From an uncultured delta proteobacterium (lineage in GTDB: Bacteria; Desulfobacterota; Desulfobacteria; Desulfobacterales; SG8-13): a DNA stretch of 47,940 nucleotides. This document shows positions 2,918-40,260 of the stretch, in pieces. The position numbers and the translations under genes are program-made. The notes under the pieces are model-generated. The model saw only the letters and a list, made by a program, of their open reading frames with translations. It had not been told where the DNA came from and searched no databases. The DNA lies in assembly GCA_963848135.1 (NCBI GenBank), contig CAWKCK010000003.1, forward strand, positions 1,116,001 to 1,163,940, read 5' to 3'. Position 1 is the first letter of the stretch; each line of letters starts with the position of its first letter.

Positions 2918-3059
2918 GTGTCCAATTCATAAATGTGGATTTTTTCCGTTGGGCAAGGCCGCACAAGGGTTTGCGGCGAGGCGTACTTTATGTGCGCCGC
3001 AGCCGGAAACCCGCGGAGAACGCAGCCCAGCAGAAAAAAGACCATTTATGGATGGACAC
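2918..3059 (+). mobile_element. MITE family A, copy 1 (142 bp)
   Basis: TIRs GTGTCCAATTCATAAATG / CATTTATGGATGGACAC; similar copies of the same length at 32226 and 34890. Confidence 0.9.
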
Positions 3060-3068
3060 TAGTTAGCG

Positions 3069-3926
3069 ATGGCCTGCCGGCTCAAAAGGTTATCGACGAT
3101 GCAGGAAGCCGCAGGGGACATACCGAGCCATGTAGAACGCCGACTCCACCATTGGGTCGCAGACGTGGTTCCATTTCGTAAGAATATCCTCTATTCCCAT
3201 CAGGCTTCCGCGGTTCTTTTCCTGCTTGGGAGACGGGCCTTGGGTGACGGGAGTGCCGAAACCTGCTTGATTCTCAACAAGCGCTCCCGGAAAGTGCGAC
3301 AGCCGGGAGACCTTTGTTGCCCCGGTGGCGGTATCGTCCCTTGGTTGGATCGCCACCTGGCCCGATTACTCAGAATCCGGGGGTCGCCACTGTCGCGTTG
3401 GGCCTATTGGTCCGATTGGCGCCGCCAGCGGCCGAATGACGCTTTCAACCTGGCACTTCTGTTGGCAACAGGGTTGCGGGAGAGTTTTGAAGAAATGCAT
3501 CTGAATCCCCTGGGGGTCAGGTTTCTTGGGGTTCTTCCGGTGCAGCGGCTGGTCATGTTTCAAAGGGAAATACATCCCTTTGCATGCTGGATCTCTCGTC
3601 AGCGACGGTTCTATCCCAATTGGGAAGTTGAAAAGATCGTTACCATACCACTGAACCGTCTGCTGGAGCCGGCAAACTATGCCCGCTACCGTTTGGAGAT
3701 TGATCTTCCGGAAAACCGTCTTCAGGGCCGCCGCAGCAGGGAAATCAGAGAATTCCCTTGTTTTCTTCACAATCAGGGCGGCTTTACCGAGAGACTCTGG
3801 GGTGCTACTTTTCGGATTACGATGAATTTTTTAAATTGGGTTTATGGATTCGAGCCGCCGAATATCGAAGATTTGGAAATCGTCGAGGGCAGACTTGACC
3901 GCAATTATGCGGCCGGCCGCGTGTGA
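3069..3926 (+). CDS. Nudix hydrolase, CoA-pyrophosphatase-like (start uncertain)
   Basis: ASAVLFLL, LILNKRS..VRQPGDLCCPGG, LRESFEEM, PNWEVEKI, LWGATFRI motifs. Confidence 0.85.
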   Translation: MACRLKRLSTMQEAAGDIPSHVERRLHHWVADVVPFRKNILYSHQASAVLFLLGRRALGDGSAETCLILNKRSRKVRQPGDLCCPGGGIVPWLDRHLARLLRIRGSPLSRWAYWSDWRRQRPNDAFNLALLLATGLRESFEEMHLNPLGVRFLGVLPVQRLVMFQREIHPFACWISRQRRFYPNWEVEKIVTIPLNRLLEPANYARYRLEIDLPENRLQGRRSREIREFPCFLHNQGGFTERLWGATFRITMNFLNWVYGFEPPNIEDLEIVEGRLDRNYAAGRV

Positions 3927-3985
3927 GCGGCTCATTATAGCCGGTTTTCGCGCGGACAATTCCGTGACTTTTTTTTAAATAAACG

Positions 3986-4264
3986 AGCCCTCGGGGAGTT
4001 TTTACCATCCGGTAGCGGAGGGAATAATCAGCGACTTCAGCGCGCAAGCTCATGCATAAGGCAACCTAAGGAAAGAACAGATTTCATAATGGTATAAAAG
4101 TGTTGAGCTCAGTTCGCTTATTATGATCCGAATCTGATAACCGAGGTTTCCGCTGTTCTTTCCCAAAGTTGCCTAATGCATTCGGAAAGTGCACGCTTTC
4201 GCTGCTGATCACTCCCTCAGCTCTGGTTCAGCATTTGCGGGAAAAACTCCCCGACCCCTGAAAT
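3986..4264 (+). repeat. long-hairpin repeat family B, copy 1 (~280 bp)
   Basis: Nested inverted repeats TCGGGGAGTTTT/AAAACTCCCCGA, GAGGGAATAATCAGC/GCTGATCACTCCCTC and GGAAAGAACAG/CTGTTCTTTCC; other copies at 8637 and 35188. Confidence 0.9.
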
Positions 4265-4408
4265 AAACTAAAGCCGCCATTGGGCGAATCGGCGGGCTCA
4301 TATTTACCGCCTCCTTAACGATGGATTCTATCCCTTGGCTGGTTCCGTGGATGGATGACCTTGAAGAATTCGCGACCACACTCTTAAACCGGAAAAGACC
4401 GATTGTAA

Positions 4409-5593
4409 ATGGCTTCAGATATCGCTGGCTCCGCCCCTAAACCCGTTCTTGCCCCCGCCAATGGATTCCAGATCGGTAAGATCGTCGCCCTGTCGATCTG
4501 CCACTTCATTCACGACGCGTATTCCAGTTTTCTGGCGCCGCTGCTGCCGTTGCTGATCGAGAAGCTTTCCCTGACCTTGACCCAAGCCGGCTTCCTGTCC
4601 ACCGTCATGCAACTGCCGGCCCTCTTGAATCCATACCTCGGCACCCTGGCCGACCGCTACAGCGTTCGTTATTTCATCATTTTGGCTCCGGGTATCACAG
4701 CGGTCACGATGAGTCTAATTGGTCTGGCGCCCAGCTATGGCGTTCTGCTGCTCTTGCTGTTGATTGCCGGCATCAGTGTCGCGATATTCCATGTGCCGTC
4801 ACCGGTGATGGTGGCCCGTCTGTCTGGTACGAAAAAGGGCCGGGGGATGAGCTTTTTTATGACCGGGGGAGAACTGGCACGGTCACTGGGCCCGCTGGTG
4901 GCCGTCGGTGCGGTTTCGCTGCTGGGATTGGAAGGGTTTTATCCGGTCATGATTGTGGGCGTGCTGGCCTCCCTATGGCTCTTCCTGCGGTTCAGAGACA
5001 TTCCCATACGAACCGAAACTGGTCAGCCGACCTCGGTGAGGAGGACGTGGCGGGAGATGCGGCATATTCTGCGGCCCCTGTCTGCCATCCTCATTTTCCG
5101 CGGCTTCATGCATGCCTCTATCACGGCTTTTTTACCGACCTTCATTAACCTCGAGACCGGGAATCTGTGGTTGGCCGGGATTGGCCTCACCGTTTTCGAG
5201 GCCGCCGGGGTTGCCGGGGTGCTTGCCGCCGGTTCATTGAGCGATCGTTTCGGACGGCGGCGGATTCTGCTGATGTCCATGCTGGGTGCACCGGTCAGTC
5301 TGTTTCTGTTTACCGCCATAGGCGGTTGGCTCGGGTTTGCCGCATTGGTTCTGGTGGGGTTCAGCCTGCTTTCAACAACGCCTGTGATGCTGGCCCTGGT
5401 GCAGGAGCATGCCGGGAGCAGTCCGTCGGCGGCCAACGGTTTTTTCATCATGATATCCTTCATGGCCAGATCGGCCGTGGTGGTTCTGGTTGGATTTATC
5501 GCCGATCAGATCGGATTGCGCACCACCTATTTTCTGAGTGCATTCCTGGGGCTGGCGGGCATACCGTTTGTGCTCAAATTGCCCCACAAGTAA
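4409..5593 (+). CDS. MFS transporter (Fsr/fosmidomycin-resistance-like)
   Basis: About 12 hydrophobic segments; HFIHDAYSSFLAPLLP, GTLADRYS, FHVPS, GSLSDRFGRRR motifs. Confidence 0.92.
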   Translation: MASDIAGSAPKPVLAPANGFQIGKIVALSICHFIHDAYSSFLAPLLPLLIEKLSLTLTQAGFLSTVMQLPALLNPYLGTLADRYSVRYFIILAPGITAVTMSLIGLAPSYGVLLLLLLIAGISVAIFHVPSPVMVARLSGTKKGRGMSFFMTGGELARSLGPLVAVGAVSLLGLEGFYPVMIVGVLASLWLFLRFRDIPIRTETGQPTSVRRTWREMRHILRPLSAILIFRGFMHASITAFLPTFINLETGNLWLAGIGLTVFEAAGVAGVLAAGSLSDRFGRRRILLMSMLGAPVSLFLFTAIGGWLGFAALVLVGFSLLSTTPVMLALVQEHAGSSPSAANGFFIMISFMARSAVVVLVGFIADQIGLRTTYFLSAFLGLAGIPFVLKLPHK

Positions 5594-5712
5594 TAATCAC
5601 CGCAGAGGGGCCAATAGTGTGGCACGGCAAGAGGCGCTCAGCGATTTCAGTCTGGGGACTATGTCTAAAAATACGTAATGATGCACAGCATTCCATCGGG
5701 AAGGAGACGTCA

Positions 5713-5970
5713 ATGGCCAAAGAGAAAATCAGGCGGATGAACGGGGTTATTGCCTCCGTTTTTTCCCATACCGGTTACATTTCAAAAGAGGACGCCAGGG
5801 AAATCAGCGGATTGGATGACAGCGAGTTCGACAAGGTATACGCAAAAGCGGCCGCGATCAGCCAGAAGATAATCAACACCGGGGGTAACAAGGTGGACGC
5901 GTTCATCGAGCATATTGCCAAAGAAATAGACGCCGACACGGCCCATTACGGTGGTAAAATTTTCAAATAG
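5713..5970 (+). CDS. small hypothetical protein (85 aa)
   Basis: AAGGAG RBS 6 nt before ATG 5713 (MAKEKIRR...); the longer 5167 start in the ORF track overlaps the MFS gene. Confidence 0.75.
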   Translation: MAKEKIRRMNGVIASVFSHTGYISKEDAREISGLDDSEFDKVYAKAAAISQKIINTGGNKVDAFIEHIAKEIDADTAHYGGKIFK

Positions 5971-5988
5971 TTACAGAATCTTAGCGTG

Positions 5989-7425
5989 TTATTTTTTCTT
6001 CTTACGCCCATGGGACCGCGGCCGGTCGGCCGCGAGTGCTTTGGCTGGGATCAACCCGGTGGCACTGGCCGATACGATGTTACCGGCGACACCAGGGCCG
6101 TCCCCGGCGACGAACATGCCGCGGATTGTCGTTTCCAGCGCGCTCGTTGTCTCAATCTGGGTGGCGAAAAATTTGATCTCCGGGGCATAGAGAAGGGTTT
6201 CGGCATTGGAAACACCCGGTATAACGAGGTTGAGCTTTTCAAGGCCTTCGATGAGGTTGGTCAGAATCCTTTCCGGTAAAGCCATGGCGATATCCCCGCA
6301 GACGACATCGGTCAAACTCGGTTCGATATAGCCCTTGCGGATGCGGTTCCAAGTGCTGCGCCGCCCGCGCTTCAGATCCCCAAAACGCTGGAGAATCGGT
6401 TTGCCACCACCGATCAGCGATGCCAGGCTGCCGATGGCCTCGCCATAGGCCTGGTTATCTGTCACCGGCTCTGTGAGAACCACTTTCGACAGAAAAGCGA
6501 AATTGGTGTTCTCAGATTTTTCATGGCGGTAGGCGTGGCCGTTGACGCAGACAAAGCGGCTGTAGTTTTCTTTGGTCACGAATCCGCCTTTATTGGTGCA
6601 GAACGTGCGGGTCTGATCGTCATATTTGCTGGTTTGAATAAAAAAGGTCGGATCGTAGATGACGTTGCAGAGGTCCTGCATGATGTCGTTGTGCACCTCA
6701 ACCCGCACACCGACCTCGATGCCGCGCTGCTTGATCTTGAGGCCGTGTTTTTGTGCCAGCCCGCCGATCCAGTTGGCACCCACCCGGCCAGGTGCCAGAA
6801 TAACGTTATCGGCACGGTATTGCTTGCGATTGGTCACGACGCCGGCCACTCGCTGGTTTTTGACGATGATATCTTCGACCGTTTCTGATGTGTGTATAGA
6901 CACCTTTCTGGATTTGATGTAATCCCGCATGGTGGCGATATGATCCGGAAGACAGTCGCTCCCCAGGTGCTTCTGTTTGATGATCAGAAGGTCAATGCCG
7001 TGCATCTTAGCCATTTTGCGGATGTTGCGGGCCTCTTCCATATCCGTTGGATAAACGGGTCCGTCCATTCCGAAACGGTTGAAAATCGACTCCGTCTCCG
7101 CGATCAAACTTTCGGCCTGGAGGCGTGGCATGAACTGGGTCAGATCGGTTTTGCCCAGTTTGTGGATATAGTTGAGTTTGCCGTCCGAAAACAGACCGGC
7201 CCCGCCGATTCCCGAAAGGATGTTGCAGGGCGTGCAGTCAAGGCACTTCTGGTTGTCTGACATCGGGCAATGGCGTTTTAGGGGGCCTTTGCCCATTTCG
7301 ATCAGCAGGATATCCAGATCCGTATGCTCGCAGAGGTAATAGGCGGCGAACAACCCGGCCGGGCCGCCGCCCACGATAATCACATCGTGCTTTCGGTCCT
7401 TGCCGGTGGAAACTGCTCGGGGCAT
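5989..7425 (-). CDS. NAD(P)/FAD-dependent oxidoreductase (uncharacterised FAD dehydrogenase type)
   Basis: VIIVGGGPAGLFAA Rossmann motif, GIGGAGLFSDGKL, RTFCTN, MFVAGDGPG; GGGAGG RBS before ATG 7425. Confidence 0.92.
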   Translation of the reverse strand: MPRAVSTGKDRKHDVIIVGGGPAGLFAAYYLCEHTDLDILLIEMGKGPLKRHCPMSDNQKCLDCTPCNILSGIGGAGLFSDGKLNYIHKLGKTDLTQFMPRLQAESLIAETESIFNRFGMDGPVYPTDMEEARNIRKMAKMHGIDLLIIKQKHLGSDCLPDHIATMRDYIKSRKVSIHTSETVEDIIVKNQRVAGVVTNRKQYRADNVILAPGRVGANWIGGLAQKHGLKIKQRGIEVGVRVEVHNDIMQDLCNVIYDPTFFIQTSKYDDQTRTFCTNKGGFVTKENYSRFVCVNGHAYRHEKSENTNFAFLSKVVLTEPVTDNQAYGEAIGSLASLIGGGKPILQRFGDLKRGRRSTWNRIRKGYIEPSLTDVVCGDIAMALPERILTNLIEGLEKLNLVIPGVSNAETLLYAPEIKFFATQIETTSALETTIRGMFVAGDGPGVAGNIVSASATGLIPAKALAADRPRSHGRKKKK

Positions 7426-7710
7426 CTCATCCTCCCTTCGGTCGGGTCTTGTACCCGTTGAAACATTATACCGTCTGAAATACGGCAAGAGTGGTAAGGG
7501 TGGCTGGTGCAGAAAACGTTCGACTAACGGCACGTTTTTTTGACAACCACTATAAACGCTGTCAATAATATAGCATCTGTAGGGATTTGCCTTCAAGGAT
7601 GAAAGCAGATACTGTGGCGCATGCCGAATGCTTGTGTTTCGTCATGGCCTGTCTTACCTTAGCCGAAAACAGAAAGAAAGCCTTGCCGCCGCAGGGGGAG
7701 ATGATCCAAT

Positions 7711-8532
7711 ATGACCAACGGGGATTACTACAAGATCTTAGGCGTCGAAAAAGATACGCCTGTCAACAAAATAAGGGATGCCTATCGCAAATTGGCCTAC
7801 CAGTACCATCCGGATCGCAACCCGGAAGATGCCGGCGCGGCCGAGACGATGAAGCAGGTCAACGAGGCCTACTCCGTGCTGTCCAATCCGGAGAAACGTC
7901 AGCAATACGATTCCCTGCGCCACCGTTTCGGTGATGCGGCCTACAGTCGCTTCAGGCAATCTTACACCGAACAGGACGTGTTCAAAAACTCGGATATCCA
8001 TCAAGTATTCGAGGAAATGGCCCGGTCTTTTGGATTTAGGGGTGTCGATGAGGTTTTTCGCGATTTTTACGGTCCGGGGTATCGGGGTTTTTCTTTCACA
8101 CGACCCGGATTTTTTGCCAAAGGCTTTGTTTTTACAGGTACGGGTCCAATAAAATCCCCTTATGATCTCAAGCTGCCACATGCCGGCCTACTTGGAAAGC
8201 TTGCCCGTCGGCTACTGAAAAACGTCAGTGGTGTCGAACTCCCGGAAAAAGGGAGGGATGTTCACGATACCATTCGTATCGACCCGCAACTGGCGATGAC
8301 CGGCGGGCCTTACGCTTATTTCCTGCGTGAACAGTCGAAAAAACTGGTGGTAAAAATTCCATCGGGTGTGCGTGACGGTCAGAAGATCCGCCTGACCGGT
8401 ATGGGGTACGGCGGAAGTGGCGGCGGCCAGACAGGTAATCTCTACCTGAAAGTTCACATCCGGCGTCCGATACTGGAAACCGTCAAGGGAAAAATTTCAC
8501 GATTTATCACGCCTGATAAGCGCCTGAAATAA
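7711..8532 (+). CDS. DnaJ-domain protein (no zinc finger, CbpA-like)
   Basis: DYYKILGV...YHPDRN...[10 protein letters not shown]-domain; C-terminal [24 protein letters not shown]. Confidence 0.92.
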
Positions 8533-8636
8533 TATTCCATTTGCAAAAGGGAACTGACGTTTTTGGTTGAGGCATTGAACAGATTGACAAACCGGTTAAA
8601 GCCATGTACGCCAGACCGGAATAGATTAGAAAGATG

Positions 8637-8916
8637 AGCCATAGGGGCGTTTTCATCATCTGGAAGCGGAGGGAATGATCAGCGACTTCAGCGCGCAAAC
8701 TCATGCATAAGGCCGCCTAAGGAAAGAACAGATTTCATAATGATATAGAATTGTTCAGTTTAATTCACCATTTTTAGACTGAAGCTGACAGTCGGGGTTG
8801 CTGCTGTTCTTTCCCAAGGCGGCCTAAAGCATTCAGGCAGTGCTCGCTTTCGCTGCTGATCATTCCCTCCGCTCTGGGCCAGCATTAGCGGTAAAAACTC
8901 CCCAACAGCTGAGATA
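8637..8916 (+). repeat. long-hairpin repeat family B, copy 2
   Basis: Collinear with copy 1; AGCGGAGGGAATGATCAGC / GCTGATCATTCCCTCCGCT form a perfect inverted pair. Confidence 0.9.
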
Positions 8917-8961
8917 AATATCTGTTGTTCTCCGACCTAAGAATTTCCGCCCCCTTTGCCT

Positions 8962-9657
8962 ATGCAACTGCAGGTCAACAATCTGACCCTCAAATACCCC
9001 GGAACCATCCATCACGTTTTCAGAGACCTTACCTTCGAGTTGAAAACGCCGGGATTCAATTCCCTCTTCGGACCATCAGGGGTCGGTAAAACCTCCCTGG
9101 CCCAAATTCTTACCGGTGACCTACCGGGCTTTTCCGGTCAAATAGCCCATCGGGGAATGACGACGTTTCTCTATTCTTACAATCTGGAACGTCTGCCGGG
9201 ATGGTCCAGTGTCGGCAAGCACCTCGTAAAAGTCACTCCCTCCCATCGTCATGATCGCAGAGAAGAGCTGGTTAACGTTTTCGGAATCGAAGAATGCCTT
9301 CAACAGCGATTTGGCCAGCTTTCTCTGGGTCAGCGAAACCGCGTCAACCTTCTGCGCTATCTTTTGCAGGAATTCGATCTGCTGATCATGGACGAAAGCC
9401 TTGCCAATGTCGACGAGATCACCCGGGAAACCATTCTATTGAAAATAAAGGCCATGTTTCCGGAGACCCACTTTCTCTATATATCGCACAATGTGGTCGA
9501 GGTTGCCAAGTTTTGTAATGATATAGTGGTGTTGAGAGGGGCGGGGCGACAATCGCAGGCAACCATTGTGTCGGGGCAGGACGCCCGGTTCGGCCAGAAG
9601 ATCGACCCCCACAATATGGACCGAACCATGCTGGAGATCGTCAATGCTTCTTCATAG
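8962..9657 (+). CDS. ABC transporter ATP-binding protein (TauB/SsuB-like)
   Basis: Walker A GPSGVGKT, signature LSLGQRNR, Walker B LLIMDE, H-loop ISHN. Confidence 0.92.
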   Translation: MQLQVNNLTLKYPGTIHHVFRDLTFELKTPGFNSLFGPSGVGKTSLAQILTGDLPGFSGQIAHRGMTTFLYSYNLERLPGWSSVGKHLVKVTPSHRHDRREELVNVFGIEECLQQRFGQLSLGQRNRVNLLRYLLQEFDLLIMDESLANVDEITRETILLKIKAMFPETHFLYISHNVVEVAKFCNDIVVLRGAGRQSQATIVSGQDARFGQKIDPHNMDRTMLEIVNASS

Positions 9658-10396
9658 GCGGATATACCAGTTCCTGATTATCTATCTTATGGCGGTTGGT
9701 TTTTTACTTCTGATCAAATACGGGCTCAACTTGTCTGATTATGTTGTCCCCGGACCTGGCGATATCCTGCACACTGCCGAAGCAGAGTACCGACGGTATT
9801 TTACCGATGTCATGAACACCCTGATGGTGGCGGTCCTCGGTCAAATCATTTCGATTGTCATGGCCTTTCTGGTCGGTATCACCGGCCGACAGGCGACCTG
9901 GCTGGGGTCATTCATCAAAGTGGCGGCGTACAACGTTCAGGCGTATCCGATCGTGGCCATCGCGCCGATAATCTTCATCCTTCTGGGAGACGGCCTGTTG
10001 CCACGATTGTTAATCGCCGCCATGATTTGTTATTTTCCTTTGCTGCTCTCCATCATCGGCATCATGTCAGAACCGGTTGCCGATATCGAGCATTTTTACC
10101 GGGTGACCGGCCGAATGCGCTGGCAGCTGGAAGTCAAAATTCGGGCATTCGAAAATCTGAACAAACTGACCACGGTGATTGCCGGGAGTACCACCCTGGC
10201 AATGGCCGGCACGATAGTGGCCGAGTTTATTGCTGCCAACGCCGGAATCGGATACAGTATCCGGGTGGCGCTTTACCAGAGCGACCTGGCCAAAATTCTG
10301 GTGGCACTTTTCCTGATCGGCATTACTCTTTCGGTGTATCAGGGCGTTTTGGAACTTTCCGGGGTCCTGATCCGCAAGGCCTGGACCGGAAAATAA
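9644..10396 (+). CDS. ABC transporter permease (TauC/SsuC-like)
   Basis: Hydrophobic; YVVPGPGDI, PIVAIAPI, IVAEFIAANAGIGY motifs; ATG 9644 overlaps the end of the ATPase gene. Confidence 0.9.
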   Translation: MLLHRRIYQFLIIYLMAVGFLLLIKYGLNLSDYVVPGPGDILHTAEAEYRRYFTDVMNTLMVAVLGQIISIVMAFLVGITGRQATWLGSFIKVAAYNVQAYPIVAIAPIIFILLGDGLLPRLLIAAMICYFPLLLSIIGIMSEPVADIEHFYRVTGRMRWQLEVKIRAFENLNKLTTVIAGSTTLAMAGTIVAEFIAANAGIGYSIRVALYQSDLAKILVALFLIGITLSVYQGVLELSGVLIRKAWTGK

Positions 10397-10458
10397 GCCG
10401 CTTTAACAATCATTGGAACGGTGGCACGGCCAGGCATCGTTTTCAGTTTTTTCTCCGC

Positions 10459-10651
10459 ATAATAATCATCGATAAACCCCCAACTTAGCTGGGGAGACTC
10501 CCAAAGTTTGACAATTCCAGGAGTTAACCAAAACCTGAGGCGATGATTATTATAATTCAATGACCGGTTGATTGTCCGTATAGTGGTTTTAAAAGAACGT
10601 TTTGAGCGGTTTACAAATCATTCCTCCGGCTTTGCCGGAGGTCATTGAATT
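10459..10651 (+). mobile_element. family C element, IS200/IS605-like ends without transposase, copy 1
   Basis: Two hairpins, CCCCAAC-TTA-GCTGGGG and CCTCCGGC-TTT-GCCGGAGG, and no terminal IR; related copies at 23916 and 36568. Confidence 0.75.
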
Positions 10652-10702
10652 ACTGGAGAACTAACGCTGTGTGTCAAAGCGGGATAAAGGGAGGATCCAT
10701 CA

Positions 10703-11713
10703 ATGTCGGTTACCAAAACGAATCCACCGAAAACCGGTTGGCTTGCGATTTTTTTATTGGCCGTTCTGATCGATATCGGCAGTGCCGGGTTCGGCGCGGC
10801 AGCCGACAGCCTCACATACCGGCTGAAATGGCTTTTCAACACCAGCGTCGTGGGCGACTTATACGCTGATGTGAACCAGTTTTTCGCGGCTGAGGGGTTG
10901 CGGGTTGTCGTCAAGGAAGGCGGGCCGGAACGGGATGCCATCCGCGAACTTGAGCTGGGGCGGGCGCAGTTTGGCGTTGCCTCTGCCGACCAGGTGATCC
11001 GGGCGTTGTCCAAAGGGGCCGACGTCGTGGTCATCGCTCAGTTCTTTCAGATCAATCCCCTGCAGTGGATTTACCGGCCGGACAGAATCAAGATCGACAG
11101 CCTTGCCGATTTGAAAGGCCAGGTTCTGGGGGTGACCTTCGGCGGCAACGATGAAACCATTCTGCGGACACTGCTGGAAAGAGGCGGACTTTCGGTGGAC
11201 GATGTATCCTTGTTCAGCGTGCGTTACGATTATACACCGTTTTTTCTAAAAAAAGTTAATTTCTGGCCGGTTTATCGCAATGCGCAGGCAGTCTTTCTTG
11301 GGAACAAACTGGACAAGGCCGGTGAAACTTTTGCATTTTTTAACCCGGTCGATTACGATGTGAAATTCGTCGCCAACTCCCTGGTGACCTCCGGGGAGAT
11401 GATCAGAAGTCAGCCGGAAACCGTCCGGAAGTTTACCGTTGCCCTCCTGCAGGCCTGGCAATCTGCACTTAACCCGATAAATGAGAACAAGGCCGTGGAG
11501 ACGCTGCGTCGCTTCGACAGGGACTCACCCGTCGCCGTCCTCAGGCAGCAATTGGAGATCACCAGAGGACTCGTTCAGCCGGATCCTGTGGTTCCCATTG
11601 GGAATGTCGATATCGATGCCTGGAAACAGACCGAACAAATCATGCTGGAACAGAACCAGCTGCTGAAAACGGTGTCCGTGCAGCGGGTGCTCAAACCCTT
11701 GCCGGTTTATTGA
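10703..11713 (+). CDS. ABC substrate-binding protein, NMT1/THI5-like
   Basis: Signal peptide; YRLKWLFN, FFAAEGL, SLADLKGQVLGVTFG motifs; GGAGG RBS. Confidence 0.9.
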   Translation: MSVTKTNPPKTGWLAIFLLAVLIDIGSAGFGAAADSLTYRLKWLFNTSVVGDLYADVNQFFAAEGLRVVVKEGGPERDAIRELELGRAQFGVASADQVIRALSKGADVVVIAQFFQINPLQWIYRPDRIKIDSLADLKGQVLGVTFGGNDETILRTLLERGGLSVDDVSLFSVRYDYTPFFLKKVNFWPVYRNAQAVFLGNKLDKAGETFAFFNPVDYDVKFVANSLVTSGEMIRSQPETVRKFTVALLQAWQSALNPINENKAVETLRRFDRDSPVAVLRQQLEITRGLVQPDPVVPIGNVDIDAWKQTEQIMLEQNQLLKTVSVQRVLKPLPVY

Positions 11714-11841
11714 GGCCAAGAGCCTTTATTGCAGAGGATTTAAAAGTGAGTCAGGAGTGCCGGGTATCGGCCACCGGGGTGGGGACTGACCGGCGATTGT
11801 TGGCCGATCAATCCGCAAACTCAGCAGGATCTCTGCCCTAT

Positions 11842-12099
11842 CTCGGAAATTTCATCAATTGGAGGCTTTTATGGCCAAGGCATTTCGAGGCGATGCTGTA
11901 GTCAGTCTACCGCGATCCTCGAATAACGCTGGCCATGGGATCCTCCGGTTGACCCGAAGGGTGCAATCTTTTCAGCTCTTTCATTAGATCTTGGGGAGGT
12001 ACAAAGTTTCCCTCGGTTATCCGGTTCATGAGTTTGACCAATACCCCGATATGGCTTCTTTTTTATTGCTCGATGAAAAGATTTCATGAAACATTCGGA
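11842..12099 (+). mobile_element. MITE family D, copy 1 (258 bp, IS1380-like ends)
   Basis: TIRs CTCGGAAATTTCAT / ATGAAACATTCGGA with CTAT/TTAG flanks; highly similar to 17641-17898. Confidence 0.88.
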
Positions 12100-12107
12100 T
12101 TAGGGCA

Positions 12108-12713
12108 TCAATCGGCATCCGATTGGGGATATTGAAAGTAGGCGTCCGGGTTGTTATTCAGTTCATCGATCCGGTATTTGTAATAACCGACCTGGCGGCG
12201 CTTGTTATTCTGGGAACCGAATTTTTCCAACGGTGCCTGTTCCAGAGTATAGACGGCAAAGGTCAGACGCTTCCTTTCGCGCGCGATGACATCTTCCCGT
12301 TTGACTCCGGGTTGTTCCAGCTCTTGTTGCAGGCTTTCCACAATCGATTTCTCTCGCTGGACAAGGGTACCTTGTTCCTGGGGGAAGTTATCCAGATTGA
12401 GCCGTGTGCTTTCGAGGAATTCCGCTTCCGTATCGGCGCTATCTTCCGCTTTCGGCGCTGGGGCAGGGGGGGAATCGGTCGGGGGCGCTGCTGGAGGCGG
12501 TGTATTGGATGGCCGCGGCTTTTTTGCGGCGGTTTCTGCCGGATCCCGCGGTAGCTCCGTACCCTTCTTGTAATCTTCGGATAGTTCTGAAGGGCCCGTA
12601 TTGCTGTAGTGCTTGACCCCCTTCTCATCGGTCCAGACGTACACGCTGTCCGCAAAGACCGGTATGTGCAGCAGAACAGACAGGGCAACCGACATGGTCA
12701 TGATCTTCAGCAT
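12108..12713 (-). CDS. DUF4124-domain secreted protein
   Basis: Signal peptide, then VYVWTDEKGVKHYSN and a Pro-rich linker; AAGGAGG RBS. Confidence 0.85.
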   Translation of the reverse strand: MLKIMTMSVALSVLLHIPVFADSVYVWTDEKGVKHYSNTGPSELSEDYKKGTELPRDPAETAAKKPRPSNTPPPAAPPTDSPPAPAPKAEDSADTEAEFLESTRLNLDNFPQEQGTLVQREKSIVESLQQELEQPGVKREDVIARERKRLTFAVYTLEQAPLEKFGSQNNKRRQVGYYKYRIDELNNNPDAYFQYPQSDAD

Positions 12714-12960
12714 CGATCCTCCTTGCACTCGTGGTTCGCAACCGCCAGCAATCGTTCCTGGGGGCTTAAGTTGTAATTCAAAATTTCACCTGCTATTTTA
12801 CCACAGAGCCAGGTGGCACTCAAGATAAGCCCATGCGGAGATCTCGTTTTTTCCCCGGCGACCGGTGTTGGATGCGAATCCCAGGGTGCGTATCTAAAAA
12901 AAGGATCATCTCCGAAAAGTTGGCGGTTTCTGCGGGCAAATGATTCATATGTTATTAAAA

Positions 12961-13168
12961 CCTAATTTGAGCGATTGTCGAGGTTGCTGCAGGTACAAGG
13001 AAGATGTCGTTCCGCTATAGTCAGGCTATGCGGGACGGCATATGACGCCGTAGATGCGGCAAGATCGGCAATCCCAAGGGTTTCAAATTTTAATATCAAA
13101 CGATGATAGAATTCCTTAAATATAAAGTAGTTCCCCATCTATTAAAAATTTGAAACGCTCACTTTAGG
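12961..13168 (+). mobile_element. MITE family E, copy 1 (~208 bp, 5-bp TSD TAAAA)
   Basis: TIRs CCTAATTTGAGCG / CGCTCACTTTAGG, with TAAAA on both sides; other copies at 24125 and 40053. Confidence 0.92.
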
Positions 13169-13190
13169 TAAAATAAATGTCTAAGTTAAC

Positions 13191-13224
13191 CGCAGACGCA
13201 CGCTGACATAACGCAGACAAACGC
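13191..13224. repeat. short ~10-mer tandem repeat
   Basis: CGCAGACGCA CGCTGACATAA CGCAGACAAA CGC. Confidence 0.5.
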
Positions 13225-13254
13225 TTGGTGAATTCGGCGGGCAAAAAAGGAGTT

Positions 13255-13614
13255 TCAGCCGCCTTTGTTTTTGCGGCTGTGGTAGTCGATGATAAAATTT
13301 TTAACGACCCGGGTGACCTCTTCACGCGGTCCGACAAACTCGATTCCGGTCAAATATTTTCCGGGATTCACGGAACGGGTATGCGCCACGCGGCCCTTGG
13401 TTTCGACGATATTATTTTCAATATCGATGGACATCAAAAGGATGAAATCGGCCTCTATCGGACAGCTCGTTTCCAGGAGGGTTCCCCCTTGACTGATATC
13501 CACCGTTCGTCCCATCCCCTCCGCGGTCTGATGACCATCTTCATCGAGGCACACATAGGAGACGACATTACTGGTGGGTACGCGCGGGGTTTTTCGTTTA
13601 TCTTCGTTGGACAT
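13255..13614 (-). CDS. PilZ-domain protein
   Basis: RxxxR (KRKTPRV) and DISQGG c-di-GMP-binding motifs, GIEF. Confidence 0.9.
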   Translation of the reverse strand: MSNEDKRKTPRVPTSNVVSYVCLDEDGHQTAEGMGRTVDISQGGTLLETSCPIEADFILLMSIDIENNIVETKGRVAHTRSVNPGKYLTGIEFVGPREEVTRVVKNFIIDYHSRKNKGG

Positions 13615-13820
13615 AGGCAAAATGTCATCGGCTCGATGACCACGGGCCTTTCAAATAATATATGGAAAGAGTCGGGTCCGTTGAGGACCGCATCCGGTAC
13701 TGCAGTTCCTAAGCTTGATTTTCGCATATGTCAAGAGTCAATGTAGAAATCAGTGATATTCGAAGGCGTTACAAATTCGCTGCCAAGATCTGAAAACGTA
13801 TCAGGGAGGTATCCTCAGAG

Positions 13821-14741
13821 ATGAAAGTTTCCGATGTTGCGCCACGTATTTTCGATGCCATACAGACCCGTAACGCGCTGCCTTACACAAGGCTATGCGA
13901 CGCCATTACCGAAATTCTCGAGGCCTATCGAACCGGCCGGGTCATTGCGCCTGAACGCCTTGTCGTTTCCCTGCTCGGGCAGGGCACACTGCTGTTGATG
14001 CCGGCCTCAGACGAAAGGATAGCCATCACCAAGCTTGTTACGGTTCATCCCCAAAACCGGGAAAAGCAACTCCCGACTATCCAGGGCGAGGTCATCGTTT
14101 TCGAGGTGACCACCGGCAAGCGCTTGGGAATTCTTGATGGGGTCACGGTGACCGCCAGGCGAACGGCCGCCCTAAGTGCGTTGGCGGCCAGAGCCTTGGC
14201 CCCGGACCCTTCGGGGCCGCTGCTCGTCATCGGTGCCGGCACCCAGGCCCGGTCCCACCTGGAAGCTTACCGGGAGGTGTTGGCGGTCGAGAAGGCCTAT
14301 ATTTACTCGCGAACCCGTGCTCATGCGGAGGCTCTGGCAGACTATGGCCGCTCTCTCGGCATTCATGCCGGCGTCACCGATGATCCGGAATCGAGCGCAG
14401 CAGACGTGACACTTGTCGTTACAGCCACAAGCAGCGATTCTCCGGTATTGGATGGACGTTACTTGCGGGAAAATGCGTTTATTGCCGCGGTGGGGGCATT
14501 CACTCCTGTTATGGCCGAGCTGTCGGCGGGTCTTGTTCACCGCTGTCGTCTATTTGTCGATACGTTGGAAGGGGCTCGTGCCGAAGCCGGGGATTACATT
14601 CAGGCCAAAGTTGATTGGTCGCGGGTGCTGCCGCTGGCTGAGGCGTTGCACCATCCAGCGCCGGGCAAAGGACCGGTGATCTTCAAGAGCGTCGGACATG
14701 CCATGTTCGACCTGGCGGCGGCGCGGCTGGTATTTGCTTGA
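13821..14741 (+). CDS. ornithine cyclodeaminase / delta1-pyrroline-2-carboxylate reductase family protein
   Basis: TARRTAALS, VIGAGTQARSH, AVGAFTP, FKSVGHAMFDLAAA motifs. Confidence 0.92.
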   Translation: MKVSDVAPRIFDAIQTRNALPYTRLCDAITEILEAYRTGRVIAPERLVVSLLGQGTLLLMPASDERIAITKLVTVHPQNREKQLPTIQGEVIVFEVTTGKRLGILDGVTVTARRTAALSALAARALAPDPSGPLLVIGAGTQARSHLEAYREVLAVEKAYIYSRTRAHAEALADYGRSLGIHAGVTDDPESSAADVTLVVTATSSDSPVLDGRYLRENAFIAAVGAFTPVMAELSAGLVHRCRLFVDTLEGARAEAGDYIQAKVDWSRVLPLAEALHHPAPGKGPVIFKSVGHAMFDLAAARLVFA

Positions 14742-14770
14742 GAAGTCGGTTTTAACCTTTGAGATGCCTT

Positions 14771-15136
14771 CTATTCAATATCGGGGTCAAAGGCGGAACC
14801 GAAAATCCGGCGACCGATCTTTCGCTTCAGGCGAGCATCGATGGACTTGTGGGGGGCTTCCGACCAAGCCAGAGTGTGTCGGACCACCCGCGCCGGGTTC
14901 ACACCGCCGTCCTTTCGGCAAATCGGACATACCGGGGGACGGTTTGCGGGTGCAATCGATGGACCCAGAACCAGAGTCAACGGGGCCAGGATATCCCCAT
15001 CCCGAGTAATACCACACATCTTGATGCACCGGCAGTCCAGTTCCACCAATGCCACGCCGACGGCCGTCTGATTTTCGGATAGGATATAGCGGAACGCCAG
15101 CTCAACAGCCGGCAGCTGGCGTCGTTCATTCGTCAT
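14771..15136 (-). CDS. hypothetical protein with CxC and CxxC motifs
   Basis: 121-aa ORF 13 nt downstream of the LuxR gene, GGAG RBS; LDCRCIKMCG and VCPIC. Confidence 0.65.
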   Translation of the reverse strand: MTNERRQLPAVELAFRYILSENQTAVGVALVELDCRCIKMCGITRDGDILAPLTLVLGPSIAPANRPPVCPICRKDGGVNPARVVRHTLAWSEAPHKSIDARLKRKIGRRIFGSAFDPDIE

Positions 15137-15149
15137 GCAAAGGCTCCGG

Positions 15150-16451: not shown

Positions 16452-16806
16452 CGGTTTCCCCTTCAATGTCGCCCCCTTCCTCGCTGCAGACGCGCCGCCA
16501 TATATAGTGTTGTCATAATACCGTTCCGCAAGAATTTATTTTAATAGCGATATAACCCGCATATTTCAGCAAACAGACATTGATATGACGCACCCGAAGA
16601 AACTAAATGTATTCATGAACGGGGCCTGAACCTCGGTTGAGCGATTTCCCGCCCAGGCGGGATTCACGGTTCCCAGTTAAAGTTCCATAACTGGTCTCTG
16701 ACAATCGTATTATGCACCCATTCGTTGGAATTCCATGTTTCATCCAAAAGGTGAAAGCGGCCAATCCAAACAATGGGTTTTAAAGTTAAAGAAATCAGTA
16801 TTTTAT

Positions 16807-16840
16807 AACCTTTGAACCCTTAACCCTGAACCTGGAACCG
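16807..16840. repeat. heptamer tandem repeat (AACCnnn)
   Basis: AACCTTTG AACCCTT AACCCTG AACCTGG AACCG. Confidence 0.6.
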
Positions 16841-16891
16841 ATTAGTTTAGGTTGATGACGCTTTTTTAAGTGAAAGCGGACCACAAAGGGA

Positions 16892-17050
16892 GTAGCCGTT
16901 CACAGGGTTGCAACGTCCAATGCGCATCAAGCCACCTAATTGTAAGCATTTACAGGCTGACGCAAATGCAAGGCGTCGGGCGCGCAGGACGTACTTTTGT
17001 ACTTCAAGTGTCCGACAACAAAGCAGATGCGTTGCCCTGTGAATGCTTAC
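16892..17050 (+). mobile_element. MITE family F, copy 1 (159 bp, IS66-like, 8-bp TSD CAAAGGGA)
   Basis: TIRs GTAGCCGTTCACAGGG / CCCTGTGAATGCTTAC; CAAAGGGA at 16884-16891 and 17051-17058. Confidence 0.92.
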
Positions 17051-17411: not shown

Positions 17412-17640
17412 CGCCTTACCTCCCTATTGTTGAGGGTATAATTATGATGATAAACGGATATATCACGCCAATAGGTATGGCACAATTCCGGCGAAAAGAA
17501 AACCAAAATCAGAAACGGAAACCGATCAGCGCTCTATGGGAAACCGTGGATGGTAGGAACGACACCACTGCGTGCGACGCGGAAATTGGGGGGATAACGT
17601 TGGATGCTGAACCGGAAGGAATGACGGTGCGCGGCGCTAG

Positions 17641-17898
17641 CCCGGAAATTTCATCAATTGGAGGCTTTTATGGCCAAGGCATTTCGAGGTGATGCTGTAG
17701 TCGTCTAACGCGATCCTCGAATAACGCGGGCCATGGGAGCCTCCGGTTGACCCGAAGGGTGCCATCTTTTCAGCTCTTTCATTACATGTTGGGGAGGTAC
17801 AAAGTGTCCCTCGGTTATCCGGTTCATGAGTTTGACCAATACCCCGATATGGCTTCTTTTATTTTTGCTCGATGAAAAGATTTCATGAAACATTCGGG
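17641..17898 (+). mobile_element. MITE family D, copy 2
   Basis: CTAG|CCCGGAAATTTCAT ... ATGAAACATTCGGG|ATAG; same 258-bp length as copy 1. Confidence 0.9.
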
Positions 17899-17922
17899 AT
17901 AGGGGTGTTGTCGCCAAACGGG

Positions 17923-24124: not shown

Positions 24125-24334
24125 CCTAATTTGAGCGATTGTCGAGGTTGCCGCAGGTACAAGGAAGATGTCGTTCCGCTATAGTCAGGCTATGCGGGAC
24201 GGCATATGACGCCGTAGATGCGGCAAGATCGGCAATCCCGATGGGTTTCAAATATTAAAATCAAATGATGATAGAATTCCTTATAATATAAAGCAGTTCC
24301 CCATCTATTTAAAATTTGAAACGCTCACTTTAGG
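24125..24334 (+). mobile_element. MITE family E, copy 2 (5-bp TSD AGCAA)
   Basis: Near-identical to 12961-13168; AGCAA at 24120-24124 and 24335-24339. Confidence 0.92.
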
Positions 24335-28087: not shown

Positions 28088-28136
28088 AATTTAAGCGTTT
28101 ACAACAAAGCAGATGCGGTGCCATGTGAAGGCTTAC
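28088..28136 (+). mobile_element. internally deleted family F remnant
   Basis: TAAGCGTTTACA is joined directly to ACAAAGCAGATGCGGTGCCATGTGAAGGCTTAC. Confidence 0.75.
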
Positions 28137-31697: not shown

Positions 31698-32216
31698 CAC
31701 GGAGGGAATGATCAACTTCTTCATCATAGTCATAAGCAACCTACAATAGGAGCATTTTTTAGTGCAAAATAAATGGTTGCCTCCACCCGAACAATCGGTT
31801 TCGAGTCGCGGCTGAAACTCACCGCCAACGGGTCCTAAATCCGGACCAGGCCCGTCTTTAAACTATGGGATCGGAGTGTTCCCCCAGTTTCGCCACTCAT
31901 TCGATGTGGGTGCATAGGTCCGGCTCAAGGTCCCGTAAGCGGTTCAGACAGTCAGCCGCCGTTCTCAACCAATCATTCGGCCTCCGGCGCGTCATTTTCA
32001 TACATAGTGGTGACACGAGAGGCCATGAGGATTTAATAACAATTTAAAAGCGATATACGATATTCACTATTTTTCATCTCAAGTCCACGTCGAGGGTTAC
32101 CGTCGTTCTTTTACAAGTTTTCCTAGTGCCTTCGAGCTGTGCACGCTGGCGCTACTGAACATCCCCTCCGCTGTGGTTAAGTGTTCACAGGTAAAATTCC
32201 CCGAAAACTCAGATAG
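31698..32216 (+). repeat. degenerate family B copy split by a ~285-bp insert
   Basis: Left arm CGGAGGGAATGATCA...AAGCAACCTA (to 31743); the remainder resumes at GATTTAATAA (32030) and runs to GTGCACGCT..CCCTCCGCT..AAAATTCCCCGA. Confidence 0.65.
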
Positions 32217-32225
32217 GTATATCAA

Positions 32226-32367
32226 GAGTCCAATTCATAGTTGAGAATCTTTTTCGCTGGGCAAGGCCGCACAAGGGTCTACGGTGAGGCGTACGCTGTG
32301 TACGTCGCAGCCGAAAGCACGCGGAGAACGCCGCTCAGAGGAAAAGAGGCCATTTATGGATGGACAC
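32226..32367 (+). mobile_element. MITE family A, copy 2
   Basis: GAGTCCAATTCATAG ... CATTTATGGATGGACAC, 142 bp. Confidence 0.9.
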
Positions 32368-34805: not shown

Positions 34806-34889
34806 CACGCGCCTTCCTGTCGATCAGTTTTGCCGATTGCCTTATTCCCCAAGTGGTGGCCAGCAACGAAGAGTGGATTGCACCTTGGC

Positions 34890-35031
34890 GTGTCCAATTC
34901 ATAAATGAGAATTTTTCATGCTGGGCAAGACCGCACAAGGGTTTGTGGTGAGGCGTACTGATCGTACGCCGCAGCCGGAAACCTGCGGAGAACGCCGCCC
35001 AGCGAAAAAAAGGCCATTTATGGATGGACAC
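34890..35031 (+). mobile_element. MITE family A, copy 3
   Basis: GTGTCCAATTCATAAATG ... CATTTATGGATGGACAC, 142 bp. Confidence 0.9.
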
Positions 35032-35187: not shown

Positions 35188-35464
35188 AGCCCTCGGGGAG
35201 TTTTCATTTACCCGGAGCGGAGGGAATCATCAGCGACTTCAGCGCGCAAACTCATGCAAAAGGCCGCCTAAGGAAAGAACAGATTTTTTTATGATAAAAC
35301 TGTTCGGCCCAGTTCACCATTTGTGGTCTGAATCTGAGAGCCGGTTTTGCCGCTGTTCTTTCCCAAGGCGGCCTAACGCATTCAGGCAGTGCCCGCTTTC
35401 GCTGCTGATCATTCCCTCCGCTCTGGCTTAGCAATTACGGGAAAACTCCCCGACCCCTGAGCTA
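35188..35464 (+). repeat. long-hairpin repeat family B, copy 3
   Basis: Collinear with copies 1 and 2, with the same nested inverted repeats. Confidence 0.9.
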
Positions 35465-35487: not shown

Positions 35488-35646
35488 ACATCGGTTCGCA
35501 GGGTTGCAACGCCCAATGTGCTTCAGACCACAGAATTGTAAGCGTTTACAGTGTGCCGCAGATGCAAGGTGTTGGGCGCGCAGACGTACTATTGTACTTC
35601 AAGTGCCCGACAACAAAACAGATGCGGTGCCCTGTGAAGGTTAGAG
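35488..35646 (+). mobile_element. MITE family F, copy 2
   Basis: Collinear with 16892-17050; decayed TSD CAAAAATG / CAAAATTG. Confidence 0.85.
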
Positions 35647-36554: not shown

Positions 36555-36567
36555 TTTTTTCTCCTTT

Positions 36568-37509: not shown

Positions 37510-37518
37510 TGTATGATG

Positions 37519-38742: not shown

Positions 38743-38953
38743 GTCGCTACCTTTTGTCTAATGGTTCGAACTATTGCCCCCAAACCGCATTTTTCAGTAT
38801 TGGTATTTGTTTATTTTCACTTATTTCGAAAATATGAAACCCTCAACTTGGGAGTTGCTATGCTTGATACAGTATAGAGCGCTGCCGGTTTTGTAGTCAA
38901 GCCCATTTGCCGCGACTGCATTGCAGCGATACCGGCCTTTCTATTCTTTAATC

Positions 38954-39066
38954 GTAGCCGTTCAGAGGGTTGCAACGTCGCATTTTGCATCAAACCACCT
39001 GTTCGTGTTCGTAAGCATTTACAGGGTGCCGCAGATGCAAGGCGGCGGGCGCGCAGACGTACTTTT
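38954..39066 (+). mobile_element. MITE family F, copy 3 (3'-truncated)
   Basis: GTAGCCGTTCAGAGGGTTGCAACG...GTAAGCATTTACAGGGTGCCGCAGATGCAAGGCG...GACGTACTTTT; ends at the hairpin loop. Confidence 0.85.
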
Positions 39067-39082
39067 AAATTTAAAATCGGTT

Positions 39083-39990
39083 TCAATCAGCTGTGGTGAA
39101 TGCCCTGCGAAGATTCTCAATATTCCGTTGCATCACATTCATAAAATCACCTCGCGCCGGAACGTTGCCGCAAGGATCAAAGACAAGGCTGTCGACCTCG
39201 AGCGTTTTGAGTTTATCCACCGACGCCCGGACAGGTTCGCCCTCCCAGATCATCCATTTTGAGGGATGCTGCTTTAAACCTCCGTTAACGCATGCAACTG
39301 ACTGTCGTTTGGAACCTGGTCAGGCTCCCAATGCACACTCACGATATTCAATCCGTAACGCCTGGCAAAATAGTCGTAAACCGGATGTGACACAACCAAC
39401 GGTGTTGCTTGGTTCTTGGAAACGATGGCCTGAATACCCCGATTAAGGCGCTTAAGATCCGCGGCCAGCGCCTTATAGTTGATTTGAAACGTGTCTCGCA
39501 ACTCAGGTCGTTTTTGGCCCATGGTTGTGGCAATCACCTCGGCCTGCCGGGCAGCCAGATCAAAATCAAGCCAAGTGGTAAACGCAAGGGCCTCGTGCGC
39601 ATGTTCGCCTGCGGCACCATGGCTGTGAGTCAGTACTTCTTCGGTCGTAATATAGCGATCTTTGAACTGCCTAGAGGTAACCACTATTGTTGATCTTGGC
39701 AGGCTAACTTTGGCCACCCATTTGGCATAACCGGCGCCGTTTAGCAAAATCAGGCCAGCCTTCTGAAAGGCCGCTATAGCAGCAAGATTTGGGTTCCAAT
39801 AGGCCGGGTCCACATCTGGCGGTACCGGAAATTCCACCTTTACTTGATCGCCACCAATACGCTCGGCAAAATACTTCAAAGGGTAGCTCACGACATAGAC
39901 GTTGAGCGGTCCGGTCGCCGAGCTGCAGGGTGCGGAGAAAACAATCATGAATAGAATGATTGTGCAAATCCGCCGCAAAGCCCTCATCAT
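39083..39990 (-). pseudogene. ZnuA/TroA-like metal ABC substrate-binding protein, frameshift near 39280
   Basis: VSYPLKYFAERIGG, DPAYWNP, HSHG..GEHAH, TTWLD, SHPVYDYFARRYGL; manual translation of another frame continues KWMIWEGEP..FDPCGNVP..GDFMNVMQRN to TGA 39083. Confidence 0.85.
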
Positions 39991-40052
39991 GGGTGTAGAA
40001 AAATGTGCTTCCGGGTAGCACGCATCACCTCCTAAATAAAGGTTTATCACTA

Positions 40053-40260
40053 ACTAAAGTGAGCGTTTCAAATTTTAAATAGAGGGGGAACTGCATTATT
40101 TATAAGGAATTCTATCAAAGTTTGATTTTAAAATTTGAAACCCATCGGGATTACCGATCTTGCCGCATCTACGGCGTCATATGCCGTCCCGCATAGCTGA
40201 CTATAGCGGAACGGCATCTTTCTTTTATCTGCGGCAACCTCAACAATCGCTCAAATAAGG
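40053..40260 (-). mobile_element. MITE family E, copy 3 (reverse orientation)
   Basis: Matches the reverse complement of 24125-24334 along its full length. Confidence 0.9.

Follow-up and report, generated by a model that had tools for sequence, protein, structure and literature searches.

A folded core module common to foldback elements with different ends in an uncultured delta proteobacterium, and its probable kinship with ERIC and Correia repeats

The DNA analyzed here, hereafter the window, is a 47,940-nt stretch of contig CAWKCK010000003.1 (positions 1,116,001 to 1,163,940 of the forward strand, GenBank assembly GCA_963848135.1) from an uncultured delta proteobacterium. [quoted passage not shown] A very widespread superfamily of foldback MITEs, to which the ERIC and Correia (CREE/NEMIS) repeats belong, very probably has this module as its conserved folded core. 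A first-pass annotation of the window, made from the letters alone, had described one structured module carried by four families, A, D, E, and F, with unrelated ends. A single homologous module is indeed common to MITE families with unrelated ends, but the count of four was too low: BLAST projection and flank alignments give about 331 copies in this genome, distributed over 12 families and six terminal-repeat classes. Taken as a whole, the data are in our opinion best explained by such a core acting through single-stranded RNA that would dock host enzymes, an explanation that we favor moderately.

Fold, ends, and distribution of the module

In the four hairpins A1 (2954-3025), D1 (11876-11931), E1 (12996-13050), and F1 (16969-17023), the sequence carries CAAGG as the 5' side of the loop exactly where the first-pass annotation had placed it, and the 3' side reads AACGCAG, AACGCTG, GACGCCG, and AACAAAG, respectively. 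Each hairpin contains a family-specific inner stem closed by a short apical hairpin of the GTAC/GTAC, GTAG/CTAC, or TATAG/CTAT type. The CAAGG strand was folded as RNA and compared with 200 shuffled sequences, which gave -49.8 kcal/mol for A1 (z -4.8), -30.9 for D1 (z -3.8), -38.0 for E1 (z -5.5), and -33.2 for F1 (z -3.8); none of the 200 shuffles folded as well for A1, D1, and E1, and a single one did for F1. On the complementary strand the corresponding energies are -39.1, -30.2, -23.4, and -23.7 kcal/mol, which is a loss of 10-15 kcal/mol for A, E, and F, whereas D folds equally well. The proposed bias of wobble pairs to the CAAGG strand is therefore apparent from the fold energies in A, E, and F, but not in D.

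The architecture of the core was established on an alignment of 65 cores from different phyla, retained from at least 122 pattern matches that an outer-stem filter had reduced to 92 distinct cores. From the outside in, the core consists of an outer stem supplied by the arms of the element, the asymmetric loop CAAGG / RACRCNG (a 5-by-7 loop), a variable stem, and an apical hairpin of the GTAC or GTAG type. A 72-nt form harbors a second conserved loop, GGAGCRTAC..GTAYGTGAGCA, with a one-nucleotide bulge, a tandem G.A, and an invariant G.U below the apical helix. Two or three pairs beneath the basal loop a G.A mismatch recurs, as a reading of the alignments shows. Paired cells amount to 87.4%, against 66.7% when the letters of the 3' side are shuffled (none of 500 shuffles reaches the observed value), and shifting the partners by 1-3 columns lowers them to 28-38%. 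Compensatory changes occupy 395 cells compared with 143 in shuffles, and double changes are found at 17 of the 26 predicted pairs, which bears out the earlier statement that the stems differ in sequence yet keep pairing.

Since any maintained palindrome covaries, it is the asymmetry between the strands that points to a single-stranded form. In the stems of the cross-phylum alignment, G.T mismatches outnumber A.C mismatches 80 to 18, as had been claimed for the CAAGG strand, and purine-purine mismatches outnumber pyrimidine-pyrimidine ones 131 to 53. The fold energies concur: among 319 distinct copies of this genome the CAAGG strand is the more stable one in 73%, and among the 65 cores it is so in 59. 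The CAAGG strand thus seems to fold as a single strand. With respect to conservation, the invariance of CAAGGC, GCGGAGCRTAC, and GTAYG is partly imposed by the search pattern, whereas TGAGCA, located after the hairpin, and AACRCNG, on the 3' side, lie outside the pattern and are at least 90% conserved.

Several known motifs were compared with the loops. Kink-turns are built from a three-nucleotide bulge followed by tandem sheared G.A pairs; in a reading of the alignment columns against this definition, the tandem G.A and the G.U are present but the bulge is only one nucleotide long. None of the kink-turn, loop E, and tetraloop-receptor motifs seems to fit, and the GGA of a CsrA site (ANGGA) occurs in family E only. 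The TA beside the E module was also considered as a duplication made by the module itself, but the same positions correspond to conserved outer-stem pairs in F and other families.

In this genome, a scan for CAAGG..RACRMNG with at least five of six outer pairs returned 231 matches, compared with 76 on the reversed or complemented control, and 103 of the 231 belong to families of at least three copies. Projection of these families by BLAST led to 337 loci in 14 clusters, two of which were dropped as coding paralogues. The elements are 145-270 nt long, non-coding, and multicopy, with terminal inverted repeats and target duplications, as MITEs are, and 305 of the 331 copies are intergenic on a crude map of open reading frames. 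Class I, with ends TAGTGTCCRTCCAKAAATGG, groups families 0 (A), 8, and 13 (60 copies); class II, with ends TAGAAG..TYTCAAAA, families 4, 7, and 12 (53 copies); and class III, with ends TAACCCGGAMATTTCA, families 2 (D), 5, and 6 (46 copies). All three are flanked by TA, which was seen specifically for A, D, and family 7. Class IV corresponds to family 3 (ends TAACAGGSTGTTGAAAAACG, 39 copies), class V to family 1, i.e. E (ends CCTAATTTGAGCG, 89 copies, 5-bp duplications), and class VI to family 10, i.e. F (ends GTAAGC..CACAGGG, 44 copies, 8-bp duplications). For F, 8-bp direct repeats surround most of the 14 copies examined; for E, the 5-bp duplications were seen at copies other than E1. The families therefore differ in ends and target duplications, as proposed: 8 bp for F, 5 bp for E, and TA for A and D. 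The elements are mobile, since two genomes of the same genus (G006 and G003) lack A1 at the orthologous site and have 182 nt fewer between flanks that are 83-86% identical at this one compared locus.

As for the enzymes that could move them, the genome encodes one IS630-type gene, whose left end resembles that of class III, and this agrees with the IS630-like assignment of family D. The IS66-like assignment of F has the GTAAGC ends and the 8-bp duplications on its side, but no IS66 DDE transposase was found in the assembly (98.65% complete, 18 contigs). The 44 copies of family F are nonetheless highly similar and have clean 8-bp duplications. Autonomous parents were sought as matching end pairs 1-6 kb apart; none was found for A, D, F, and family 7, and the four long end pairs of family E are apparently separate MITEs. 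Long flanks common to copies were limited to overlaps between neighboring copies. All 29 paired family F ends that were found enclose the module. The first-pass annotation had supposed that the module was captured independently by the different elements, but the data are accounted for just as well if a single inherited core has had its ends swapped.

The module is not confined to this genome. A pattern combining the 5' loop and the apical hairpin is present in 34 of 41 related genomes, with up to 286 matches per genome compared with 0-2 for the backwards control. Its distribution among these relatives is patchy, which is consistent with transfer. In one of them, CGAGG stands in place of CAAGG in most of the 112 family F copies; their 3' loop is unchanged, and their stems differ by compensatory changes. 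A stricter pattern, run on one genome per species, detected at least 121 loci. Among the 80 listed, 30 are of Nitrospira type, 21 of Desulfobacterota type, 8 from Bacteroidota (Alistipes, Rikenellaceae, and Fulvivirga), 6 from Gammaproteobacteria, 4 from Firmicutes, 3 from Nitrospinota, 2 from Nitrosomonas (Betaproteobacteria), 2 of Desulfovibrio type, and one each from Polyangiaceae (Myxococcota) and Arcobacter (Campylobacterota), with 2 unlabeled; these loci come mostly from metagenome bins, whose labels can be wrong, and four are from isolates. Some Nitrospira-type copies (e.g. L016, L039, and L050) have a run of A before the hairpin and a run of T after it, like a bidirectional intrinsic terminator; in family A of the window the two runs are reversed.

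A number of observations concern the arrangement and the internal variation of the elements. At positions 44445-44968 of contig C2 of this genome, four modules of three families (8, 0, 8, and 1) lie within about 520 nt, and at many other loci two to five modules occur within 5 kb. This crowding suggests either clustering or insertion of elements beside or into one another. In a genome of the same order (G020), three tandem modules spaced by about 154 nt are found at C4:300716-301060 and again at C5:365266-365616, forming an array there, unlike the dispersed single copies. Within the core, extra hairpins of 11-50 nt are nested, often directly 5' of AACGCNG, in families 5, 4, 3, and 1 and in loci L015, L045, L053, L054, L057, and L112. 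The insert of family 5 and that of L057, which is from a different lineage, end in a similar way, and this site may be an insertion hot spot. In some family F copies of a relative (G035; L171, L177, L178, and L176), the part of the right arm beside the 3' loop is swapped for a small unrelated hairpin.

Relation to ERIC, Correia, and other known repeats

The 65 cross-phylum cores alone served to build a covariance model, R1. When applied to the window, it recovers three A copies (E-values 7e-7 to 3e-6), two D copies (about 2e-4), F1 (1.6e-4), two E copies (0.04-0.06), and a second F copy, F2 (0.11), all on the + strand and at the positions given by the first-pass annotation. The same model returns 10 matches in Escherichia coli K-12, with a best E-value of 3.5e-8, in spacers such as hsdM-hsdR and ahpC-ahpF. 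Four of the eight E. coli matches that were read contain sites, with one or two mismatches, for the ERIC1R and ERIC2 primers, whose two sequences appear jointly in 257 papers. Correia elements were represented by 21 loci from viral contigs, fetched with the pattern printed in PMC2649163. R1 detects two of them, the short forms L145 and L150 (E-values 7e-4 and 8e-4), and one deleted form at 0.04; the long forms among these 21 loci, which carry a 50-bp insert, are missed. In a joint alignment, CAAGG, the apical hairpin, and AACGCNG are common to ERIC, Correia, and families A, D, E, and F.

The likeness to ERIC extends beyond the model scores (3.5e-8 and 9e-8). ERIC harbors CAAGG, an apical hairpin formed by GGAGCNTAC-loop-GTANGTGA, which is the target of the primers, and AACGCNG. 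It is also described as having a long single stem-loop, A-G mispairs, TA termini, and an orientation-dependent effect on neighboring transcripts at the RNA level. Of the central inverted repeat that the primers target, the pattern GA-GCNTAC-loop-GTANGT-GA is present in the 72-nt families and in the cross-phylum set, but other stems take the place of the flanking CCCCAGG/CTGGGG stem of ERIC. ERIC, also called IRU and known from enterobacteria and vibrios, corresponds to MITEEc1 of the IS630 family in ISfinder (bioRxiv 10.1101/2024.01.18.576219). ERIC is, however, a single family whose members measure about 127 bp, have short terminal repeats, and are reported from Gammaproteobacteria only, whereas the core occurs here with six kinds of ends, some with 5-bp and 8-bp duplications, in elements 145-270 nt long. 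Over the full length of the ERIC consensus, only the core aligns with the window families, and ends and lengths differ. A second repeat family of E. coli (L135, L136, L137, and L139; for instance in the pyrH-frr spacer) has an apical CCGGAGCGTAC-loop-GTACGTGAGGA and neither the CAAGG nor the AACGCNG loop; the apical hairpin may be a sub-module in its own right.

For Correia, the reverse strand of the 106-bp element reads ..GGA-CAAGG-stem-GCAG..GTAC-loop-GTAC..CAAG-stem-AACGCCG-TAC.. (PMC2649163, supplementary file 1), and the core ends are given as TCAGGACAA and CCGGTACGG (PMC2649163). The motifs of this characteristic core, which has one ..GGACAA end and one CCGGTACGG end, are shared by the elements described here. 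The order of motifs (CAAGG, stem, GCAG..GTAC-loop-GTAC..CAAG, stem, AACGCYG), the pairing of the arms, the core of about 55 nt (as in families D, E, and F of the window), and the TA termini are shared, as is the existence of long forms with an insert of about 50 bp in the core, comparable to families 4 and 5. By reading, the Correia terminal repeat resembles that of class II (TAGAAG..TTCAAAA), but this is a similarity only, and the 26-bp Correia repeat TATAGYGGATTAA... is not found at both ends of the window families. Correia further differs by an IHF site and end promoters, neither of which was found here, and by lacking the second conserved loop of the 72-nt form. PMC2649163 reports Correia from Neisseria only. 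Because the window families differ from both ERIC and Correia in their ends, they are relatives of these repeats, not members.

The first-pass annotation had left the novelty of the motif to be judged by whether it matches an already described one, and it does match a described mobile-element core, that of ERIC and Correia. In Rfam 15, no family reaches its gathering score on the window, and none matches 12 cross-phylum loci at E-values up to 1. RF02818 (V_AS5) aligns along its entire length with the E. coli ERIC of the hsdM-hsdR spacer, although at 44.9 bits (E-value 6.7e-8) it stays below its gathering score of 96, and it has no match at E-values up to 1 on the 12 cross-phylum or the Correia loci. 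This entry, the Vibrio antisense RNA AS5, probably models a Vibrio ERIC-like element. REP sequences and REPINs are likewise multicopy intergenic hairpins whose structure is recognized single-stranded, but the elements described here possess terminal repeats and target duplications, their arms are not identical, and they are not linked to a Y1 gene. Geobacter uraniireducens, a bacterium of a related kind, harbors the Chunjie MITE, which is also a foldback element with very stable predicted RNA folds and differs by its description (21-bp terminal repeats, 9-bp duplications, and an A+T-rich body; PMC3184786). In PMC2229807, PMC3184786, PMC10969869, and the survey PMC2267715, ERIC and Correia (NEMIS) are listed as separate families, and the term 'Correia-like' did not occur in the literature searched. 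No publication appears to have brought ERIC, Correia, and the many unnamed repeats together under a single portable core, ISfinder and the supplements of MITE censuses lying outside the search.

What the fold may do

The mechanism that we propose would operate as follows. The core is joined to interchangeable terminal inverted repeats, and transposases of at least three kinds, judging from the TA, 5-bp, and 8-bp duplications, presumably move the elements in trans. The CAAGG strand would fold as a single strand, most likely in RNA, and ubiquitous RNA enzymes of the host could dock, or be positioned, at its two sequence-specific loops. An inserted copy might then be processed or insulated within host transcripts and hence be tolerated, so that lineages keeping the fold would proliferate. 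G.U and sheared G.A pairs belong naturally to RNA. Precedents come from the relatives: RNase III is reported to act on the hairpin RNA of Correia, and the exposure of Yersinia ERIC to RNase E is reported to depend on orientation (PMC2229807, PMC2649163). By analogy with these cases, handling of the RNA hairpin by host RNases can be suggested here, albeit tentatively.

A number of results weigh against this proposal. A cis-acting RNA that needs its CAAGG strand transcribed should show an orientation bias, but orientation relative to flanking genes is balanced (in tandem contexts, 86 copies are sense and 97 are antisense; p 0.46). Neither promoter-like nor terminator-like sites were found inside the elements at 2500-18500 of the window. 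Divergence within families is 8.3% in the loops against 10.9% elsewhere, and the loops are the less diverged part in 8 of the 12 families and the more diverged part in 4. The CAAGG strand is clearly the more stable one in about 6-7 of 12 families only, with families 5 and 6 reversed. The conservation argument is partly circular, given that the CAAGG of this genome and three of the cross-phylum motifs are imposed by the search patterns. Finally, the E-values are modest for E (0.04-0.06) and for Correia (7e-4), and the calibration of the model is rough.

Within families, copies decay almost neutrally. In addition, the mix of tandem, convergent, and divergent spacers is that of the genome background (crude map of open reading frames), and orientation relative to replication, judged by GC skew, is unbiased (109 to 107 and 57 to 58). 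Constraint between lineages, combined with near-neutral decay and with no dependence on context, means that the fold matters to the lineages that proliferate and not to each locus; selection would thus seem to act on proliferating lineages. The same combination suits the main competing explanation, which we consider rather unlikely, namely that the fold is needed or helpful in cis for the transposition of very short elements, by way of a cruciform, of a single-stranded DNA hairpin, or of a host factor that binds the loops and joins the ends, so that any MITE gaining it would proliferate, whatever transposase reads its ends. Loops that are near-invariant between families and phyla while decaying near-neutrally within families are what selection on still-transposing copies would leave. 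The random orientation relative to genes and replication, the presence of one core on six terminal-repeat classes with three kinds of target duplication, and the enclosure of the module by every paired family F end also fit, and a role of IHF in aiding the synapsis of the ends of long Correia elements has been proposed (cited in PMC2649163). The strand-specific excess of G.T, however, requires a single-stranded intermediate, which cut-and-paste transposition does not supply, and loops of five to seven nucleotides would impede the extrusion of a cruciform. The lack of a replication-strand bias of the kind left by single-stranded DNA transposons argues against insertion into the lagging strand. 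Moreover, DDE transposases are not known to require internal sequence.

Near-neutral decay, absence of context or orientation preference, and the patchy, transfer-consistent distribution among relatives would also be expected if the module were inherited without any function. One ancestral foldback would then have spread horizontally, its arms being kept complementary by repair or gene conversion within the element, and its loops would survive for no other reason than that large asymmetric loops escape removal by mismatch repair. This is quite improbable: the stems are wholly different between families while the loops are the same across phyla, although neutral loops would drift too, and the asymmetry between G.T and A.C is unexpected under double-strand maintenance.

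Movement as single-stranded DNA by a Y1 transposase (RAYT or IS200/IS605 type) that reads the hairpin and its loops, as for REP and REPIN sequences, would account for the conserved asymmetric features and for the strand-specific pairing, and the genome has four Y1_Tnp matches. We nevertheless regard it as very improbable, since the nearest module is 2 to 18 kb away from each Y1 gene, the 2-, 5-, and 8-bp target duplications and the terminal inverted repeats are clear, replication-strand bias is lacking, and the arms are not inverted copies of one REP but differ at the conserved loops. A folded site for a tyrosine recombinase would, like attC, keep its structure and its asymmetric loops while varying in sequence; attC sites are defined by the order RYYYAAC...GTTRRRY. 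This reading is scarcely credible, because such boxes were not seen in the A1, D1, E1, and F1 stretches (no integrase search was made), and the copies are single, dispersed in ordinary intergenic regions, and provided with terminal repeats and target duplications.

A broader reading may also be put forward, with less than even confidence. ERIC, Correia, and dozens of unnamed foldbacks in at least eight phyla could form one ancient family, characterized by its portable core and not by its ends; the core would be read single-stranded by a universal host factor, and the ends would be re-fitted from the transposases at hand (IS630-like, IS66-like, and others). Selection would in that case favor the core as an all-purpose chassis for MITEs, which would constitute a new functional class of cis element in bacterial mobile DNA. 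To our knowledge, no dedicated transposase has been reported for Correia, and a single family of this kind would account for that absence.

Copies in the window and significance

In total, the window contains 10 copies of the module and two fragments. A1 is a full foldback MITE of class I (2882..3061, + strand), recognized by its sequence, ends, fold, and R1 score (E-value 6.8e-7; match at 2946-3033); its ends read TA-GTGCCCATC...GATGGACAC-TA, and it is inserted immediately past a stop codon. Two further A copies lie on the + strand within repeat-finder boundaries: A2 at 32192..32367 (module 32262-32333, E-value 1.2e-6) and A3 at 34856..35031 (R1 match 34918-35005, E-value 3.2e-6), the latter with the 5' loop CAAGA. 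Class III is represented by D1, a MITE of 270 nt with TAACCCGG-type ends (11836..12105, +, E-value 1.5e-4), and by D2 (17635..17904, module 17675-17729, +, E-value 2.1e-4). E1, of class V, spans about 208 nt with CCTAATTTGAGCG-type ends and has its module close to the left end (12961..13168, +, E-value 0.039); E2 (24125..24334, module 24160-24214, +, E-value 0.062) has its ends set by offset from E1. F1, a class VI MITE of 159 nt with GTAAGC...CACAGGG ends (16892..17050, +, E-value 1.6e-4), is bordered by an 8-bp direct repeat at 16884-16891 and 17051-17058. F2, with the 3' loop AACAAAA (35488..35645, R1 match 35557-35626, +, E-value 0.11), has its ends set by offset from F1. The repeat finder further located on the + strand a truncated family F copy, F3, reduced to its left arm and the module's 5' half (39011..39075), and a right-end remnant of family F (28101..28136). 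A degenerate family E module with its 5' loop decayed to AAAAGA lies at 40166..40231 on the - strand.

This last copy is the sole one on the minus strand, the other 9 of the 10 window copies being on the + strand. In the last 100 kb of the contig the strands are split 10 to 2, while the whole genome is unbiased. Other multicopy intergenic repeats of the window (4094-4245, 8745-8896, 32044-32195, and 35294-35445; 10460-10624 and 23916-24080) have no match to the module model at E-values up to 10, so the module is not present on every repeat of the window.

Among bacterial repeats, ERIC and Correia rank with the oldest and the most used, both for typing and for studying how pathogens regulate their genes. 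The window elements are further relatives of this known kind of repeat, and it is the gathering of ERIC, Correia, and unnamed repeats under one core that appears to be new. The core is a candidate for a new Rfam or ISfinder entry. If ERIC and Correia have in common one conserved folded core that is also present in Nitrospirota, Desulfobacterota, Bacteroidota, Firmicutes, and others, a single model could annotate many intergenic hairpin repeats that are so far unexplained, and the two invariant loops would give a definite starting point in the search for the protein that recognizes them. The swapping of ends would in addition provide a model of how MITEs outlive their transposases.

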